This document shows positions 35,023-55,671 of a stretch of 64,000 nt of DNA, in pieces. The position numbers and the translations under genes were made by a program. The DNA comes from Ylistrum balloti. Taxonomy: Eukaryota. The first letter of the stretch is position 1; each line of letters opens with the position of its first letter. The notes under the pieces are model-generated. The model searched no databases and was not told where the DNA came from. It saw nothing but the letters and a program-made list of their open reading frames with translations. Where the stretch lies: assembly GCF_031769215.1 (NCBI RefSeq), contig NW_026782006.1, positions 972,070 through 1,036,069 on the forward strand, read 5' to 3'.

Positions 35023-35237
35023 TTAACTGTCGCTATCAGAATTACAAACATCAGTTTCACGCTGACACCTGTCCTTCTTTCTAACCTTGACCACTGGTTC
35101 TGAGTCACCTTCTCTGCTGTGATCTTCAGGTGTGTTGTCTTTTTTCCGCCCTGTAACGTGAAGGGTCCCCCTATCACTGCTATCTCTGCTTAACCGCTTC
35201 CCCTGGTGTTTATCGACCTGGTGAATACGGCTTCTTC
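35023..35237 (-). CDS. Gene B terminal coding exon (minus). RRSRIHQVDKHQGKRLSRDSSDRGTLHVTGRKKDNTPEDHSREGDSEPVVKVRKKDRCQRETDVCNSDSDS, then stop
   Basis: On the minus strand: acceptor tgtttctgttgacag|GAAGAAG. Phase 1 in, which completes the codon CGA with the C carried from the previous exon. TAA stop at plus 35023-35025. Confidence 0.6.
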
Positions 35238-41783: not shown

Positions 41784-42222
41784 GCTTGCTTGTACTGGCC
41801 ATTATTTCTTCCATTGACATTTCCAGTGAACTTGGTTTCCTTGAAAAGACATCTTCTGAAGACCCTGAAGTATTTGATGTTAGTCTAGGTCGTTCAAGAA
41901 TCTCAAATGATTCTTGTCTGGACAAACGTCGAGAGCGTACACTTGCTCCACTGACGTATCCGGACTCCTGGCGTTCATATCTTTCTTTATTTCGGTAAAC
42001 TGGAGTTGGGAAGTGCTGGGTGTCATCAATAGTCTTCCTTACATCTACTTGTAACTCCTTATTCTTTTTGGAATCAGAAGAGTACTGAGAACTGTCCGTC
42101 TCTTTTTCATTTGTCAGATCGTCACTGCTGTAACTCTCCTCTGCACTATCAAGCAAACTATCAGAATCTTCAGAACTCACGCTACAGTTGGATACAATAG
42201 TCGATGGTATACATTCAAATCT
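41784..42222 (-). CDS. Gene B exon (minus). Ser/Asp/Glu-rich: RFECIPSTIVSNCSVSSEDSDSLLDSAEESYSSDDLTNEKETDSSQYSSDSKKNKELQVDVRKTIDDTQHFPTPVYRNKERYERQESGYVSGASVRSRRLSRQESFEILERPRLTSNTSGSSEDVFSRKPSSLEMSMEEIMASTSK
   Basis: On the minus strand: acceptor tctacatttacag|AGATTTG. Donor AGCAAGC|gtaagtt. 146-codon open frame. Phase 0 in, phase 1 out. Confidence 0.65.
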
Positions 42223-43937: not shown

Positions 43938-44116
43938 CGAATACTCCTGTTGTAACCGGGATTTCCTGTTTGCGTCTGTTCTTTTGACAGCTAGTAGGTG
44001 GAATCTCTTGATGTCAGGATATTCATCATGATCTGTGGGCATCCCTCCTTCCATCATCTTTTCCATTGTTTTGTCATAGTAAGTGACAGATTGTTGAAGG
44101 AGGCTATAACCTTCAG
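43938..44116 (-). CDS. Gene B exon (minus). Peptide ..EGYSLLQQSVTYYDKTMEKMMEGGMPTDHDEYPDIKRFHLLAVKRTDANRKSRLQQEYS
   Basis: On the minus strand: acceptor cttaaacag|CTGAAGG (plus 44117-44118). Donor TATTCG|gtaaga (plus 43932-43937). Ends phase 0, matching the next exon. Confidence 0.55.
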
Positions 44117-45974: not shown

Positions 45975-47606
45975 TTAAGTGTAACATGAATACGAACCTA
46001 TTTTATCGTCACGGATCCTCTGGTCTCCCCAGTTAAACAGGATACGGGCAATAAGGCTATAACTTAATGTCAAATACACATGGGGCTCCTTCAGAATCTT
46101 TTCTCGTACTTCAAGACTTTTTTTTGCATCAGCTTTTGCTTCCTCATACCTTTTTAATTGAAGGTACAAGATTGATCTGTTTCTCAAAGCTTCAGCATGA
46201 TCGTCTGTGTTATCTGTGCCACGCCTTCTTCCCTCTGCTATTGCCCTGTCGAAATGTTCCAGAGTCTCGTTAATGTACTGATCACGTGATGAATCTTTTG
46301 AAGTATTATCCAATATTTCTTTTAACAAACAAACAGCGCGGTTGTTCCTGAACCGATCTACATCTGGATGCTCTTCTTCAGTAAAACGTCTCCATAGAGA
46401 TGCCCTTTCTATTGCCTCTTCATGATACTTTCTGCATTTGTCATTGTCGTAGAGATAGAAATAACAACCAAGGTCATTAAAGACATTGGCAAGAATCATA
46501 TTTAGATTTTCATTCCTCTCCATTACCTGTTGGAGTTCTTTGTCCTCTAAATACTTCTTTGCTCTGTCCAAGCTTTTTAAGATATCATGTCGTCTTTCAA
46601 TTTTTCTGAAGTAAATAGCTTTCCTGTAGTAGTAGTTTCCTAGAGCTACTTTTATGGCGGTGTCGGATCTGCTGTTGGCCTCATCAAGTTTTTCTTCGGT
46701 AACATGTATAATGTCAGATATGCGTGTAGTATCATCCATTTCAGTCAGCAACTGTATCATGTAGCCACGGAAAAAGAACAATTTATCGATTTCGTTATTT
46801 TGCTCCGCTTTGTGTGTTACCCACTCAAGCCATCGCAGCTGTCTGTTTTGTGTAAGGGTACGTCTTCCTATCGCCAATATTCTGTTTGACGCTTGGATGT
46901 TTGACCGGCCAGTGTCATAATCATCTGTAATTTCCTGTATCATATCAAAATAGCTCTGGACATGTACGTTATACTCTCTCATGTAAGATCCAACACTGTA
47001 GTAAGAATTTTCTTGTTCCTTTCCTATAATTCCAATGATATTTTCCATGTACTCCACAAACCTTATTCTGGCGGGCTCCATGACATTTGAAAACTCACTT
47101 TTACGTTGAATTAGAAATTCAAACATTCGAGGATGAAGAGAGTACAGGATGTTTCTGTCACTGTCTCCCAAACCTGGAGGTCTTTCTTGTGTTGTGTTCC
47201 GCTCCAAGTTTCCCTCTGTCTGAACAGTCATATCGTGGATTTCAATGAGATGACGGCTTTTCAAGTGGAATAGATTCATCTTTGTATTAAGAACTGGTGA
47301 ATATGGAGCATTGTCTTCCTTCAGAACGGCATCGGCTGCATCAATGTCAAAGGATGAGGTCTTGAACAAAGTAAGCTGCATCAGAATGTTCTTCATGTTT
47401 TCGTCAAGTCTATCATAACTCTCCTGGAGGCATTTCTCCATTCTGTCCATGTTGATTACTCTATTTTTTCTCAGATGATTAATAATTTCAACTGGTTTCA
47501 CCTGTCTACAGCAGCTTCTCAGAATACTACATATTGTTCGTAAAGCTAGAGGAATGCCATCAGTCAGTGTAACAAGACTGTCGCATTCTGCTTCTGAGAC
47601 TAAGTC
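45975..47606 (-). CDS. Gene C terminal exon (minus), 543 codons plus stop. DLVSEAECDSLVTLTDGIPLAL (a GxP/GLPL-like motif), a winged-helix-like stretch, then a TPR-like helical repeat region (…ALGNYYYRKAIYFRKI…LGCYFYLYDNDKCRKYHEEAIERA…)
   Basis: On the minus strand: acceptor catgtctcttcag|GACTTAGTC (plus 47607-47608). The ORF-track ATG at 47618 has an in-frame TAA two codons upstream, so the region behaves as an internal exon. Long open frame to the stop at plus 45975-45977. Confidence 0.75.
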   Translation of the reverse strand, partial: DLVSEAECDSLVTLTDGIPLALRTICSILRSCCRQVKPVEIINHLRKNRVINMDRMEKCLQESYDRLDENMKNILMQLTLFKTSSFDIDAADAVLKEDNAPYSPVLNTKMNLFHLKSRHLIEIHDMTVQTEGNLERNTTQERPPGLGDSDRNILYSLHPRMFEFLIQRKSEFSNVMEPARIRFVEYMENIIGIIGKEQENSYYSVGSYMREYNVHVQSYFDMIQEITDDYDTGRSNIQASNRILAIGRRTLTQNRQLRWLEWVTHKAEQNNEIDKLFFFRGYMIQLLTEMDDTTRISDIIHVTEEKLDEANSRSDTAIKVALGNYYYRKAIYFRKIERRHDILKSLDRAKKYLEDKELQQVMERNENLNMILANVFNDLGCYFYLYDNDKCRKYHEEAIERASLWRRFTEEEHPDVDRFRNNRAVCLLKEILDNTSKDSSRDQYINETLEHFDRAIAEGRRRGTDNTDDHAEALRNRSILYLQLKRYEEAKADAKKSLEVREKILKEPHVYLTLSYSLIARILFNWGDQRIRDDKIGSYSCYT

Positions 47607-48099
47607 CTGAAGAGACATGAATTAAGTGCATTTTACTGTCAACCGTACTAAACTGAGCACATTTCAGTCCTTACCTTTACATGCAAATTAATTCAAATCA
47701 GAATAAGTATCAAATTGGTGTTAAAGGCAACACTTATTTACTGGATAACATCTTTTATTTGTTACTTAATATGCTCAACAAAAAAGAAACGCTCAAAGTC
47801 CCCCTGCAGTTCACCTTAGCTGGAAGGAAATACTGAAATATTTGGTCAGATATTACATCAAGAATTATCACCCTTCTCATCATTCTACCCTTGAATCATC
47901 CAAGCATGACGATGTCATTGTCTGATTTAATGAGCTACCTAAGTCCAAATCACGCGGCGTGATCAAACCAAGCCTAATTGGTTTTTCAAACGAATAATTT
48001 CAACGGATACTCTAAGTTCAGCCACGTTGGCATTTTGATTTCTCCATTGACCGAAATGCTATGCTTAACGCAAATTCAGAAGGGTAGCACAACTGCGAT

Positions 48100-48850
48100 G
48101 TTGATGGATGGTCATAGCCAAACTGCTGTCGCACGGTAGTTTGGCAATACCCCGTGTACAATTAACCGTCTATACACTTTTCCATGCTACTGGGTTAGTT
48201 TCCCATCGTCACAGGAGTGGTCTTCCGCGTGTAACGACCGCACGACAAGAGAGGACGATTCGATTGCCGCATTTGCACAACAGATTCAGAACTGCTATAG
48301 AGACTGTGTCGCGTACCTAAGGTACTCATGGCATACTTATTAGTGCTCAAACTTCCAGGAACCGCTTGAGTGCCGATATAATCATTGCGTGCTGACCTTA
48401 TGTCAGGTCACCTCTGACTCCACGGAGGCGGCAAGTGCGTCTTGACTGAATGCGCAGATATGACCCGAATAGGGTTTGGATGCGTCGGTGGAGGCGTGTG
48501 ATGTTCACTGACGAGTCTAGATACTGTCTGTATCGGTCAGACGGAAGAAAAAAAAGCATATCGCAGACGCGTTGAGCGTGTTGCCGACGCATGCGTGGTT
48601 GAACGCGATGTATTCGGTGGGGCTTCTGTAATGGCAAGTGTTGCATATTGCCAGATTCTGACGTACTTTACTCATGGCAACTACGTTCAGCCTCTAGAAT
48701 TGCCCCAAAATAACCCCGACATGTCTCCCATCGAGCATCTGTGGGGTGATCTGGACAGGCGTAGTAGGAAACGTCCAGTTGATCGCAGCATTAACACAAG
48801 AATGGAACAAAATTCCCTTGAGGCGAATTAATGTTCTCATGAATTCAATA
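48100..48850 (+). pseudogene. Tc1-like transposase pseudogene (frameshifted), antisense inside a gene C intron
   Basis: Fragments read GLPRVTTARQERTIRL..NRFRTA; then W..VMFTDESRYCLYRSDGRK..; then GGASVMA...NNPDMSPIEHLWGDLDRR. These are canonical Tc1 motifs, split across three frames. Confidence 0.7.
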
Positions 48851-49313
48851 CATAAGAGACTCCGTGTAGAGAATCGTGTCTCCACACCTGGTACTTAATT
48901 GTCATTTTGTTTTTTGCGGATATCCCACTTTGAGTAACTACTGACGACACGAGCGACGTCACACAGACTTTTCTTCTGCAATATTGTAAATAGTAGACTT
49001 GTCCCTTCATATATTTTAATTGTGCGTTTCTTTTTTGGTTGAGTATATTTTTATGCGATTGTGCTCTACACAGACAGCTACCAAACATCAAATCAAGTTT
49101 ATGAATAAATTTAATACGTTAAAATTGTGTTGAATATTTATTACATTTTCAAGCTTTCTAGACTTTTTCTTCAATTTCTCACAATGTTTTGATAACCATT
49201 TTGGAATATCTAATAACATATTTGATTATATAAAGAAACGAACGTTCAAGCTATAAGGGCAGTGAAATATCTTGCTGATGAAGTCATTCATCGTGCCCAA
49301 ATTGTCTTTATAC

Positions 49314-49460
49314 CTTGGGAGTACACTTTCTGATTAGCTCCTTTGCGGGATGCCTGTCTAACGGTCCAACTTCCAAATTACGTATTAAATCCCTCATGTG
49401 AGGCATTGTTCTTTCGAAGATGTCACGCAGGTTTACACGGTTTGTAACGATGATACGGAC
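49314..49460 (-). CDS. Gene C exon 5 (minus). VRIIVTNRVNLRDIFERTMPHMRDLIRNLEVGPLDRHPAKELIRKCTPK, an RNBS-B-like hhhhTxR motif (VRIIVTNR)
   Basis: On the minus strand: acceptor ttcttttgacag|GTCCGT. Donor CCCAAG|gtataaag. Phase 0 in and out. Its 26-aa spacing from Walker B is typical for an NB-ARC domain. Confidence 0.7.
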
Positions 49461-51714
49461 CTGTCAAAAGAATAACACCAGTGGACTATGATCCCACTCA
49501 TCCTTATATTATCAACACCAACGAACTATGAAACAAGCCAGAGCTATTACTTAAGGAGGGTTGTCAATAACACTATATGTTGGCACGAAAATGGCCCAGA
49601 ATCGTGAATAGAAATGACATAGGGTTGTGAGCAACACCAAAGCACTTCCCTGAAATGACATTAGACAGTGAGAAACACAATACCTGCTCCCGGTAATGAT
49701 ACATGTTTGATAGCAAAACTAGACATGTTCCCAAAAATACCACGATCATTCGAGGAACCTAGCGCAAACGTTAAAAATCATCTCAGGCGGATTTTCAACA
49801 GTACCAAAAAACTGTAAATAAAGGTGGATATTTAGGGTTTAAAAATGAAATGCTTTAATGAAATCAACCCAAGGACAGAAAACAATTCAGGAAAAAAACC
49901 AAATAAGTGACAGGTAACTTTGTTGTAACATGAAGAATTTTAACAAAACTTTAGAAATGAACCGACAGTTAGGATCAAATATGGCGGAATCCCTATGGTG
50001 TTTTTCTGAGAAGTGTCTTTCTTTTGAGAAAGACGGACAGATCCACAATACCGCATGGAATTCCCCTTCCTGACTTCACATTGGACATTTTAAAAACCCA
50101 TCCGAATAGGCTTGACATAGAACACCACAGAGGTAAGAATTAAAACCAAACCTTTGAACAGCAAGGTGCTGATACAACTGGCTATGTAATGCGCCTTACG
50201 CTTTAGAGGCAAATTAGTGAACTGTGACCAGGGGGATCGCTTTGGTATAATTGAAGTCATTTCACTCAAAACCCCTATCCTCCGAAAGTTTCAAATGGGA
50301 AAATGAACAATGGTATTTTATAAGGGATAAATTGTGTCACAAAACAAAGACATATCCGATAAGAAATTCAAAATGCGTACAAGAAGGTCACACATTCTTG
50401 GAATGTCCAAAAGATTGGAAGTGTTGGGTCTGTGGGGATACTGAACACGAACAAACGGACAGTAAGTTCATTTAACAAGTCTACACTCCATTCTCAAACC
50501 TGATAATACAAGCAAGTGCGCTAACACGAGAGACGCAGTCAACGTTGACGAGGTAAACACAGTCGTACCAGGACAGGACGACAAATTATTCAACATATTA
50601 TGAACCTAACGACAACATGACGAAAAGCGTACTCAAGGACAACCTGTCGACAAAATAGCTGGTTAGCGACATGCTCGTTGCATTTTGACCAGACGCAAAG
50701 ACCAAGATATGCCATTCATCAATAAAACATTGCGACCGTAATGAACTCCTGATATACTACTTCCACCCCAGTAAGACGAACGGTATCTACCAACACCTTA
50801 CGAAGACTTCATGAAAATAAAAAAAATACATGACAAATGAACGACAAACACAGGTGTCTTAACAAGAATTCACAAACAAGGCAATATCTTATCGAAGAAA
50901 AAGTACCAATACTAATGTCACCGAGGTCTTCGAAACAAGTGTTTGAATGGTAGTTTCTGAGAAAACAACAGCAGAGGTGTAACAATAATCAGGAACACAC
51001 TCATCAATGTGATTTACAGAAGGAAATCATTGATGGAAAAGGAAGTTGCATTTTATTTCACGGTGACATTAATGATATACTCTTTTTTATCGTGAATGTG
51101 TATGCGATAAATTGCGAGCAAACTGGAAACTTTTTTTACAACAAACAAAAGCAAATAATATCCAATAAAGTAGGTTTTTACTTGTCGGAGATTTTCAGAG
51201 AAATCATCACGAAAGTACAGTATACGTGGCGACGTAACAAAAAGCCAGCAGAATTGATTAATTCTGAGTAAGTAATGATACAATTAACATGGTCAAAAGT
51301 GTAGTTTTCAACAGATCTCAAGCTGTATATCTTAAATTAGAAAGATAGATAGAGGTCCTGGTATATGGAATATAAACACAAGTGCAAAATGAAGGATATA
51401 AGGTACTAATTAGTAGTGATTTAATTGAGAAATATTTCTATGTGCGATCGATATGAAGTTGGACGTGTTTGATACTCGTAAATTTGCCTTTTGGTTCTGT
51501 TGTTGAATGATTTGTATACATGACGCTTACTTTCCCGGAACACCTGGACTTACTCTACTTTTTTTATCTTCTATGTTTATGTTGACATGTTGGTATTTTC
51601 TTCGTCTCCTTGTTTTTTGTTATTGTTGTTTTTTATCTTAGGTTGTACAAAAACACACAAGTGAAAAACACCTTTCCATAATCTAGAGTGAGACACAGCA
51701 GAGCCAAACACTGA

Positions 51715-51990
51715 ATTAAACTGCATCATACAGCTGTTTCGTCTTTCTAGGACTCTTCAGTGATGTTAAGAGCATAAATTTGAAGCCTAGAAGACGATTA
51801 AGGAAAATCAAAAGTGATCAAAAGAAAAGTAAAAATCTAGACGGGAATGTGCAGCAGCCCCATAATTAGAAAAATTTCGTAATTTTGATACATCAGATAA
51901 ATTTAGAATATAGTCAAGTACATGTTTTGCTCTGAACCGTGTCACTATTCGAGTGAATTTAAACGTGGCATGAAGGTTACGTCAAACATC
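51715..51990. repeat. Interspersed repeat, copy 1 (about 270 bp), related to 53285-53560
   Basis: ctgtttcgtctttctaggactcttcagtgatgttaagagcat… aligns with ctttgtttcgttcttctaggactcgccagtaatattaaggacat… at roughly 70-75% identity by eye. Confidence 0.6.
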
Positions 51991-53068
51991 GAGAACTACA
52001 GCTAAAGATATTTGCGTTTTTATAAACAGTGTCAGTAATCAACATATTCATGTATCAAACAAAATACCAAGCTAAAGATGGCTTATCTGCAAATTGCTGC
52101 TCTCACGTGTGTAAATGGTACCCTCTTTTTAAAACCGAAAGTACTGAATGTATACATAATTTGGAAGACGGACAATTTACCCGCATCATGGTTGAAAGTG
52201 TAGCGGTATGTGAGTGTGAATAATTTCTGTATAGTGATTGTATAATCACGAGTTTTTAATGAACATACATTAAATTTACTTTTTATAATTAGAAAAATAT
52301 TTTGGTACATAATTAAAGGTAATAAGGCACTGAATCAATCAGGACAAAGATACAGTGATTTGCTTTCCATCTAGACAACATGTGCAGTATCTAACACCAG
52401 AAAGAGGGTGAATAGAAGTGGGAGATAAACCCGTGTTATCATGAGAATAGTATGCGTATGTTATTATACAAATATGTTTGAACAAAACTTTGATAACACA
52501 AGTTCAAATCTACTAGCACATACAATCAACTTATGATGAAACGGCTCTACGCATAGTTCGTGCTCTGAAGTATGTCCTTTTTCTTGTCACTTTTAGTATA
52601 AATTTTATCTATGTATGAAGAAGAATTGATATGTATCTTAATTAACATTCACCATACTAACAAAAGAAATGAACACATGTTTAGAAATACTGTAAAATCA
52701 TAAAAGATCATAATGAAGATTAGAAATGTGCAATACGTGTAAGGCGTTCCATTGGTATTCTGAACACTCTGTACATTACAGTTGTTAACCTCATGTTATT
52801 GTATTTGTCCATTATATTGAAATGACCATTATAAGCCATTTATAAAACGCCAAATTCGGTGTACAAACACCGACAGTGAATTGCATCAAATGAGTATCCA
52901 TATATTTCATTAGCTTATCAATAACATATTACACAGGTCTGTAAATGTAATACGCTTGAATCTTAATACTTACATAGCTGTGCGGTACATGTTTAAGGAC
53001 AAAAGGGTTCACAAAGTATTAACATTTACATCATTCTGATGGTAAAAGGAAATGTCAAATAATCTTAC

Positions 53069-53175
53069 CTTACAAGTATCTCGTAACTTCTCCAATATCT
53101 TTTGGACGAATTGTAGAAACTGATTTTCATTTTTGTGAATGATATCGTCCACATTATCCAGCATGACAATTGTTC
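53069..53175 (-). CDS. Gene C exon 4 (minus). RTIVMLDNVDDIIHKNENQFLQFVQKILEKLRDTCK, containing Walker B hhhhDD (IVMLDNVDD)
   Basis: On the minus strand: acceptor tctctacag|GAACAATTG. Donor TGTAAG|gtaaga. Phase 1 in, phase 0 out. Confidence 0.75.
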
Positions 53176-53284
53176 CTGTAGAGATAACAATGGTGTTAAA
53201 TAGGTATAATGATTAACGATATCTGAACACCCATTTCACTTATCGTCTTGATCGATTTCACTATTATCATTAATATTGAACTGC

Positions 53285-53560
53285 ACTATACCTTTGTTTC
53301 GTTCTTCTAGGACTCGCCAGTAATATTAAGGACATCCATTTTAAAGACGATTGAGGAAACTCCAAAGTGATCGAAAGAACATTCAAACTCTTGACGGGGA
53401 GGTGCACTAGCCCCATGATTCCAGAAATTTCGCAATTTTCATGTATCTGATAATAACTTAATAACAATGTCTAGTATATGTGTGCATTCTGAATCATGTG
53501 ACTATTGAATTAATTAAAATGTAGCATGCAGGTTACAGCAAACCGAAGTAACGTATATAT
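53285..53560. repeat. Interspersed repeat, copy 2 (about 270 bp), related to 51715-51990
   Basis: As for copy 1. Both copies sit in gene C introns in the same orientation. Confidence 0.6.
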
Positions 53561-54215
53561 GATCCCGAATAGAAAACCAAAAAATATTTTATTAGATTTA
53601 AGGAGGATATAATAGTGTGAACAAATTAAAATAAATCTAAATAACAAATGATTTGTTTAAAAGAGTTGGGGAAATATTGAAATGTTCTTTGACGTCAGAT
53701 AGTTGCACGTAACGCTTGACAACGAAATTTTGAATTTACGTGGTATTTCAACATCTCGTGCTTTTTTTCTTTGGTAATCGCTTACAGATCTGCTTTATAC
53801 ACCAAATTAGAGATAACCAAATAGGCACATGAAAAATATTTGTTAGAAAACCAGCTTAGTTAACCTTTGCCTCGTTTGCGACAGAACAGCAAAACATACC
53901 AACTTCAATGCAGTGACCAAAAACATCGCTCTGATTGGCCAAAACTAAAAAAGGTGATATCATTGCTAGAAAAGTGTTATCATATACGATATCTTATATC
54001 TTAAATGAAATTGATAGATTCCTATATTTCATTAGCAAAAATTAAACCTGATAAATATATTGTGGTGTTTTATAATTAAAACAAAATAAACAAAAAAATG
54101 ACACGAACATCTTCTGACAAAGAATTTTTCTGCCATGTTTTGAAATATGATTATTTATATTATTCATATCGTTATAAATATAGGTAAACACTTTGACACA
54201 TCTGATAATACTTAC

Positions 54216-54376
54216 TGCGAGTGATTTTACTAAGGTGGTCTAAAATGTTGGCTTGCATCTTGCTGTCCTTGGTATCCTTAAGACTGTTTAATAGGTCATC
54301 GGATGACATGCCGTCGTCTTTCAATTGGAGCTCCAAGACAATGTCCTTCAACAAATCCCCCATAGAATCTTTCTCT
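54216..54376 (-). CDS. Gene C exon 3 (minus). REKDSMGDLLKDIVLELQLKDDGMSSDDLLNSLKDTKDSKMQANILDHLSKITR
   Basis: On the minus strand: acceptor cattttattacag|AGAGAAAG. Donor ACTCGCA|gtaagt. Phase 2 in, phase 1 out. Confidence 0.7.
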
Positions 54377-54625
54377 CTGTAATAAAATGCAAGAAAATGG
54401 TGATAAAGTTGGGAATACATAGAAGGCTTTAATAAGTTTCTATATAAATGTTATATGTTTGCATTCATTTAAAATTGTTTGTGTAAGATATTCTCGATTC
54501 AATCACAGATTGTCTCAACAATGCCGTAATGTCTTAATTAAGTTATTTTTCTGACGTGAGATTTCATACCACATCAGAATTTATTTTGATCAAAATATAA
54601 TCTATTAAACAATGGGTTAGTTTAC

Positions 54626-54737
54626 CTTAGATCAATTTTGATAACCTGCCAGTGCTTTTTAGAAGACCATAGTCTACGACAAATTTCATTGCCAATAGCA
54701 GTCTTTCCTATGCCTCCGGCGCCCGAAATGCTCACAG
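54626..54737 (-). CDS. Gene C exon 2 (minus). AVSISGAGGIGKTAIGNEICRRLWSSKKHWQVIKIDL, containing the Walker A P-loop GAGGIGKT
   Basis: On the minus strand: acceptor cttatttacag|CTGTGAGC. Donor CTAAG|gtaaac. Phase 1 in, phase 2 out. Confidence 0.75.
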
Positions 54738-55244
54738 CTGTAAATAAGATCAAATAAAACATTACGTATGAGTTTTTAAAAAAGTTATGATTTCTACGTC
54801 ACTGAAAAACTTTCTAATTATAAATAAGTGATACTCAAATGAACGCTTTACACTCTGGTCTGAACAGTAAAAAGTGTATGGCCCTTCAATTTAAATCATT
54901 TATGTATGTGATTAAAATGTTGATCATGAAAAGAGCGTTAAATACGTACGTTTACGGAATTAGCCAGATATCAATTATCACTTTTCCAATTAATCTCTAA
55001 TGATGCAACCAGCCAGACAAAATATTAGCACTGAAACTTTTAAAACGTGTTTCAATTTTGAGGTGGGGGTATCGATGCAGGAGGTCACTAATTAAGCATA
55101 TCAAATTAACTATAATTACTAAACATTATGCTATAACTTTGATTACTTATTAAAGATATCATTCTACCTTTGAATACTAATTTAACATTATACACTAGAT
55201 ATAATAATTAGTTATAGTACTCCAACCGGAAGAACTCTTCTTAC

Positions 55245-55671
55245 CAGGAACGGTGCTTTCGATGAAATCCTTGATTTGATTTTCCCGTCCAACGAAGTTT
55301 ACATCAAATATGTCCATCTGCATACATCTTCGTTTGTGTTCCACAAACTTCGTTTTGTACTTTTTTAACATATCCGCTACTCTGTTACGGCCTAGGTCAC
55401 GATGCCAGTTTTGAAAATCTGTCACATTGATCAGAAAATCAAGCATGTCTTCTTCTCCGAAATTATTCTTCAGAATTTGGAAATAATGGGTCGCATTTTG
55501 TATATTGTTTTTGGACAACCCGCCGAGTGAAGTCCTCGACAGATTGATAATCTCGTCAAATGTCAAGTCATCGCCATCCAAATCTGAGATGAGATCATTT
55601 ACAATCACATCAAAGGGATCTAACCTAGTTTGATCTCCAAACGCAATACGGTCATCTTTTGTGTAAGCCAT
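55245..55671 (-). CDS. Gene C exon 1 (minus), start codon at 55671-55669. MAYTKDDRIAFGDQTRLDPFDVIVNDLISDLDGDDLTFDEIINLSRTSLGGLSKNNIQNATHYFQILKNNFGEEDMLDFLINVTDFQNWHRDLGRNRVADMLKKYKTKFVEHKRRCMQMDIFDVNFVGRENQIKDFIESTVP. Death-fold-like (CARD/DD-like) N-terminus, then the linker leading into the P-loop
   Basis: First ATG after an in-frame stop. Kozak-like accacaATGG. Donor CCTG|gtaaga (plus 55239-55244). Phase 1 out. Confidence 0.65.

Follow-up and report, generated by a model that had tools for sequence, protein, structure and literature searches.

The metazoan 'Apaf-1-like' NB-ARC proteins follow a common plan in which a death-fold head is followed by an NB-ARC switch and then by a TPR sensor; they are lineage-specific and functionally uncharacterised. 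Non-CARD members include DED-NB-ARC proteins in Nematostella and DD-NB-ARC proteins in amphioxus and sea urchin, with TPRs in place of WD40 repeats (Zmasek et al. 2007, PMC2246300). Placozoans carry CARD/DLD-NB-ARC-TPR/WD40 proteins (PMC6321704). Bacterial and fungal NB-ARC-TPR STAND proteins include the AfsR-type SARPs, cyanobacterial NB-ARC proteins and fungal NB-ARC-TPR NLRs (PMC4986451). Apaf-1 itself has not been found in molluscs or annelids despite extensive searches (PMC10959488), nor has a direct Apaf-1 homologue been found in the oyster (PMC7836458). Molluscs show cytochrome-c release, caspase activation and expanded DED-caspase families (PMC10959488, PMC7836458). CARD-caspases (caspase-2/caspase-Y) are the presumed players in the intrinsic pathway of bivalves (PMC10959488), which also have caspase-8A, caspase-8B, single-DED caspase-8-like proteins and FADD (PMC7836458).

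A bivalve family of similar architecture is represented at LOC132545765 in the scallop Ylistrum balloti, on the minus strand of a 64,000-nucleotide stretch of contig NW_026782006.1 (the window, to which all positions below refer). The gene is real and intact. Its RefSeq protein (P0001, 1137 aa) maps back onto the window at 100% identity as nine coding exons, and this nine-exon model is correct; the Pecten maximus orthologue has identical exons and intron phases. The clustered RefSeq database holds a single product for the locus (cluster of 1). No further paralogue or additional exon was found elsewhere in the window by tblastn with family members, and the adjacent plus-strand ORFs gave no Pfam match. 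An earlier note on this DNA expected such genes to be poorly annotated, which is fair, since RefSeq has a model but names the product "uncharacterized protein". A literature search with six LOC identifiers of the family returned no paper mentioning its members.

All nine exons lie on the minus strand. Coding exon 1 (55227-55671, aa 1-148) holds the start codon, the DED-like head (aa ~18-120, 55312-55620) and FVGRE, its limits being set by the exact RefSeq mapping, the donor of the orthologue and the spacers of the family. Exon 2 (54626-54737) carries the P-loop or Walker A motif GAGGIGKT at 54723-54700, exon 3 (54216-54376) the variable NB-ARC insert between P-loop and Walker B, and exon 4 (53069-53175) the Walker B motif IVMLDNVDD at 53170-53144. 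Exon 5 (49314-49460) opens with the sensor-1/RNBS-B motif VRIIVTNR at 49460-49437. Exon 6 (45998-47606, aa 325-860) encodes DGIPLAL (GLPL, 47561-47541), the winged-helix LHP (47144-47124), a helical linker and the greater part of the TPR-like sensor. Exon 7 (43938-44116, aa 861-920) completes the helical sensor and includes the family-wide motif GG(L/M)P..H.EY at 44051-44007; it is matched in tblastn by distant family members from Pinctada, Solemya and Mactra. Exon 8 (41784-42222, aa 921-1066) encodes a Ser/Asp/Glu/Arg-rich tail, of which the segment RRLSRQESFEILERPRLTSNTSGSSEDVF (41931-41845) is kept in Pecten and Mizuhopecten. Exon 9 (35023-35237, aa 1067-1137 and the stop codon) is placed by the RefSeq protein mapping. 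Minisatellites swell the introns of the gene.

The earlier note had described six exons. These are phase-consistent as claimed, forming an open frame of 2586 nt (861 codons and a stop) in which every junction shows AG/GT, and all five acceptors and four of the five donors are exact; the exon-1 donor is wrong, and three coding exons were missed. The total of six exons and 861 codons gives way to nine exons and 1137 aa, with exons 7-9 extending to 35023. Exon 1 had been ended at 55245, but its donor lies at 55227 and adds six residues (GKKSSS). Exon 6 had been taken as the last, but it has a donor (G|GTTCGT) at 45998, 23 nt upstream of the proposed stop codon. The two exon-1 donors are mutually in frame, and 55245 (CTG|GTAAGA) is nearer the consensus than 55227 (CCG|GTTGGA). 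The latter is nevertheless favoured because Pecten has a homologous donor and because the spacer between FVGR and the P-loop, 16-25 aa in 11 family members, is 19 aa in the RefSeq model and 13 aa in the six-exon model. That the 861-aa product, using 55245 and reading through 45998, is a real or major isoform is very unlikely. The better consensus of the in-frame donor would allow it, and retention of intron 6 would stop the protein after seven more codons. Against this, RefSeq lists one product, donors homologous to both 55227 and 45998 are used in Pecten, the short spacer falls below that of 11/11 family members and the GGLP motif of exon 7 would be dropped. A stand-alone gene formed by the 547-aa ORF was also considered and is rejected, the upstream exons being conserved and collinear in the orthologue.

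By its sequence the Ylistrum protein is a STAND-class ATPase of the NB-ARC (AP-ATPase) clade, as had been proposed. Pfam NB-ARC (PF00931) scores 39.5-39.7 bits against a gathering cutoff of 23.5, with 39.7 bits on the full RefSeq protein (aa 144-387), 37.5 in the orthologue and 44.5 in a paralogue. The motifs FVGRE, GAGGIGKT, IVMLDNVDD, VRIIVTNR and DGIPLAL are collinear across exons 1, 2, 4, 5 and 6, and the contention that this order did not arise by chance is borne out (NB-ARC E=5e-10; RefSeq protein match at 99% identity). Walker A occupies aa 154-161 and Walker B aa 242-250. Among 11 members from 10 species and 9 genera, FxGR, GxGGxGKT, hhhhDN, TxR, PLA and LHP are invariant, including G154, G156, G157, G159, K160, T161 and the pair D246-N247, the sensor-1 arginine motif T281-x-R283 (RNBS-B), P343-L-A345 (GLPL) and L481-H482-P483. 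The last of these is a variant form of the MHD motif and retains the winged-helix histidine. Invariance of the core motifs argues for a working switch.

The family profile matches NB-ARCs of the plant NLRs MLA13 (2e-14) and Sr35 (5e-12) and, partially, Apaf-1 (1.6e-6), as well as Roq1, NRC4, ZAR1 and AfsR; NACHT proteins are absent from its top 60 PDB matches. A NACHT-LRR NLR is rejected on this ground and because Pfam NACHT reaches only 21.6 where the cutoff is 26.7, and LRRs are not matched. An Apaf-1 orthologue is likewise rejected: there is no CARD and no WD40, and in its NOD the protein resembles Apaf-1 no more closely than it does plant NLRs. The description "Apaf-1/NLR-like" therefore holds for the overall architecture only. 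Nor are the cnidarian or deuterostome proteins supported as orthologues, the nearest non-family NOD matches being bacterial NB-ARCs and plant TNLs (20-25% identity). The bacterial and fungal NB-ARC-TPR proteins, which are the closest non-family database matches, share the NB-ARC, TPR_10/TPR_12-type repeats and a Walker B of the form hhhhDNhDD, but they are only 20-25% identical to the bivalve family and their heads are HTH, HET, kinase or other domains rather than a death fold.

The N-terminal head had been called CARD/DD-like. A death fold is likely, but its nearest relatives appear to be the DED (and PYD) rather than CARD or DD, and the death effector domains of PEA-15, FADD, caspase-8 and vFLIP are among the closest known systems. 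The head is predicted to form a six-helix antiparallel bundle of ~90 aa. Searched with the family profile of the head, PDB sequences yield the PEA-15 DED as sole match at E<0.01. In hhalign the head aligns collinearly over long stretches with three DEDs but over only 10-12 columns with the PYD, CARD and DD controls. At E 0.002 and an hhalign probability of 46%, the sequence similarity to DEDs is marginal. An AF2 model from a 25-sequence alignment reaches pLDDT 74, but its best Foldseek match (E 0.49) is not significant; it replaced a model from a 3-sequence alignment (pLDDT 64.5) with pyrin domains as top Foldseek matches, also at non-significant E-values. The Pfam death-fold models (DED, CARD, PYRIN, Death) give only scattered noise and no match at E<=10 on 25 family heads, and the head has been overlooked because no Pfam model detects it. 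The RxDL/charge triad that is the hallmark of DEDs is not conserved in the family, nor is any arginine at this site; Ylistrum has HRDLG (H90-R-D-L-G94), of which the histidine and glycine (HxxxG) are family-invariant. Taken together, the head is likely a cryptic death fold most like a DED. It is rare: 1.84 billion representative proteins yield 33 matches, and wherever the source is named it is a bivalve. Used in a word-index search, the 25-sequence profile of the head gave one match only and no partner protein with the same head type.

The helical/TPR sensor spans aa ~500-920 and is followed by a disordered Ser- and acid-rich tail. The TPR call of the earlier note stands: TPR_12 scores 32.4 against a cutoff of 30.1 on the 861-aa model (28.8 on the full 1137-aa protein and 41.2 in paralogue P0004), with TPR_12 and TPR_10 matches at aa 771-833, and the family profile also matches TPR structures in the PDB, namely consensus TPR (CTPR), KLC, LGN and Pins at 1e-8 to 5e-28. 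The repeats are KLC-type TPRs. A single-sequence PDB search finds KLC TPRs only and is uninformative for head and NOD. A P-loop/TPR scaffold akin to NPHP3 or kinesin light chain, working outside death and immunity in trafficking, cilia or transcriptional control and bearing an N-terminal interaction module that resembles a death fold by chance, is distinctly unlikely. It would fit the kinesin light chain TPRs as best single-sequence matches, the missing RxDL of the head and the conserved basophilic-kinase-like sites in the tail (RRLSRQES), which suggest phosphorylation-based regulation. It would also fit the Pfam NPHP3_N score of 28.8 against a cutoff of 24.8, but this falls to 17.9 in the orthologue, overlaps the stronger NB-ARC match and is accompanied by no other NPHP3-specific Pfam match in the Ylistrum protein; it is read as generic STAND similarity.

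The family was found in this analysis only in bivalves, from protobranchs to heterodonts. In this it differs from the metazoan 'Apaf-1-like' proteins, as it does in a head too divergent for the Pfam death-fold models and in its long Ser/acid-rich tail. Expanded immune receptor families have many copies, whereas there are few per genome here, with three on one Mizuhopecten contig. Paralogues are 25-35% identical in the head and 30-41% in the NBD, falling to 12-26% in linker and TPR, a profile typical of STAND receptors. Ylistrum and Pecten share 59-66% identity in every structured domain. That the scallop gene is a decaying or non-functional lineage-specific copy is therefore extremely improbable: its minisatellite-swollen introns might hint at decay, but all 1137 codons are open across the nine exons, catalytic and switch motifs are all intact, and exon structure and per-domain identity are held in common with Pecten.

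The preferred reading, somewhat more likely than not, is a signalling protein in which a DED-like head, an NB-ARC switch (aa ~125-495), a TPR sensor and a tail act through oligomerisation and head-mediated recruitment of a DED partner. By analogy with Apaf-1, CED-4, plant NLRs and other STAND proteins, the protein at rest would be an ADP-bound monomer that the TPR region keeps closed. Once a putative ligand binds the TPR sensor, nucleotides could be exchanged and the NB-ARC modules would oligomerise. Brought together in this way, the heads would seed a homotypic death-fold assembly with a partner that bears a DED, most plausibly FADD or one of the caspase-8-type caspases that are expanded in bivalves; such partners are available because bivalves have both DED caspases and FADD. 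This would set off caspases (cell death), immune signalling or both. Against this reading count the absence of a Pfam death-fold match, the non-significant Foldseek values and marginal DED similarity of the head, its unconserved RxDL, the failure to find a partner with the same head type and a copy number per genome far from that of expanded immune receptor families. Apaf-1, CED-4 and Dark likewise join the NB-ARC fold and motifs to an N-terminal death-fold recruitment domain, with proximity activation driven by oligomerisation as the shared expectation.

The family might instead take over the role of Apaf-1 in molluscs as a 'DED-apoptosome' of the intrinsic pathway, serving to activate initiator caspases and not to sense pathogens. 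The reported lack of Apaf-1 in molluscs and annelids (PMC10959488) and of a direct homologue in oyster (PMC7836458) leaves room for such a component, and both the low copy number across Bivalvia, like that of a housekeeping pathway component, and the better conservation of head and NBD agree with it. It is unlikely, as the NOD matches Apaf-1 (partially) no better than plant NLRs, TPRs replace the WD40 repeats that bind cytochrome c, a DED-like head would not recruit the CARD-caspases caspase-2 and caspase-Y, and the family was found in bivalves only whereas loss of Apaf-1 is common to molluscs and annelids.

As regards genome annotation, combining profiles with structure allows a death fold to be annotated in a family of 'uncharacterized' proteins. 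A bolder proposal, as unlikely as the stand-in for Apaf-1, is that this DED-like/NB-ARC/TPR family supplies the initiator platform that molluscan cell death seems to lack, an apoptosome-like wheel that would directly nucleate caspase-8-type DED filaments without a death receptor or FADD, in a phylum in which Apaf-1 is reported to be missing. If true, this would account for both the Apaf-1 gap and the expanded one-DED and two-DED caspases of bivalves. In this conserved bivalve NB-ARC switch, shellfish of commercial importance have a concrete candidate for a platform that would act upstream in caspase activation or immune signalling.

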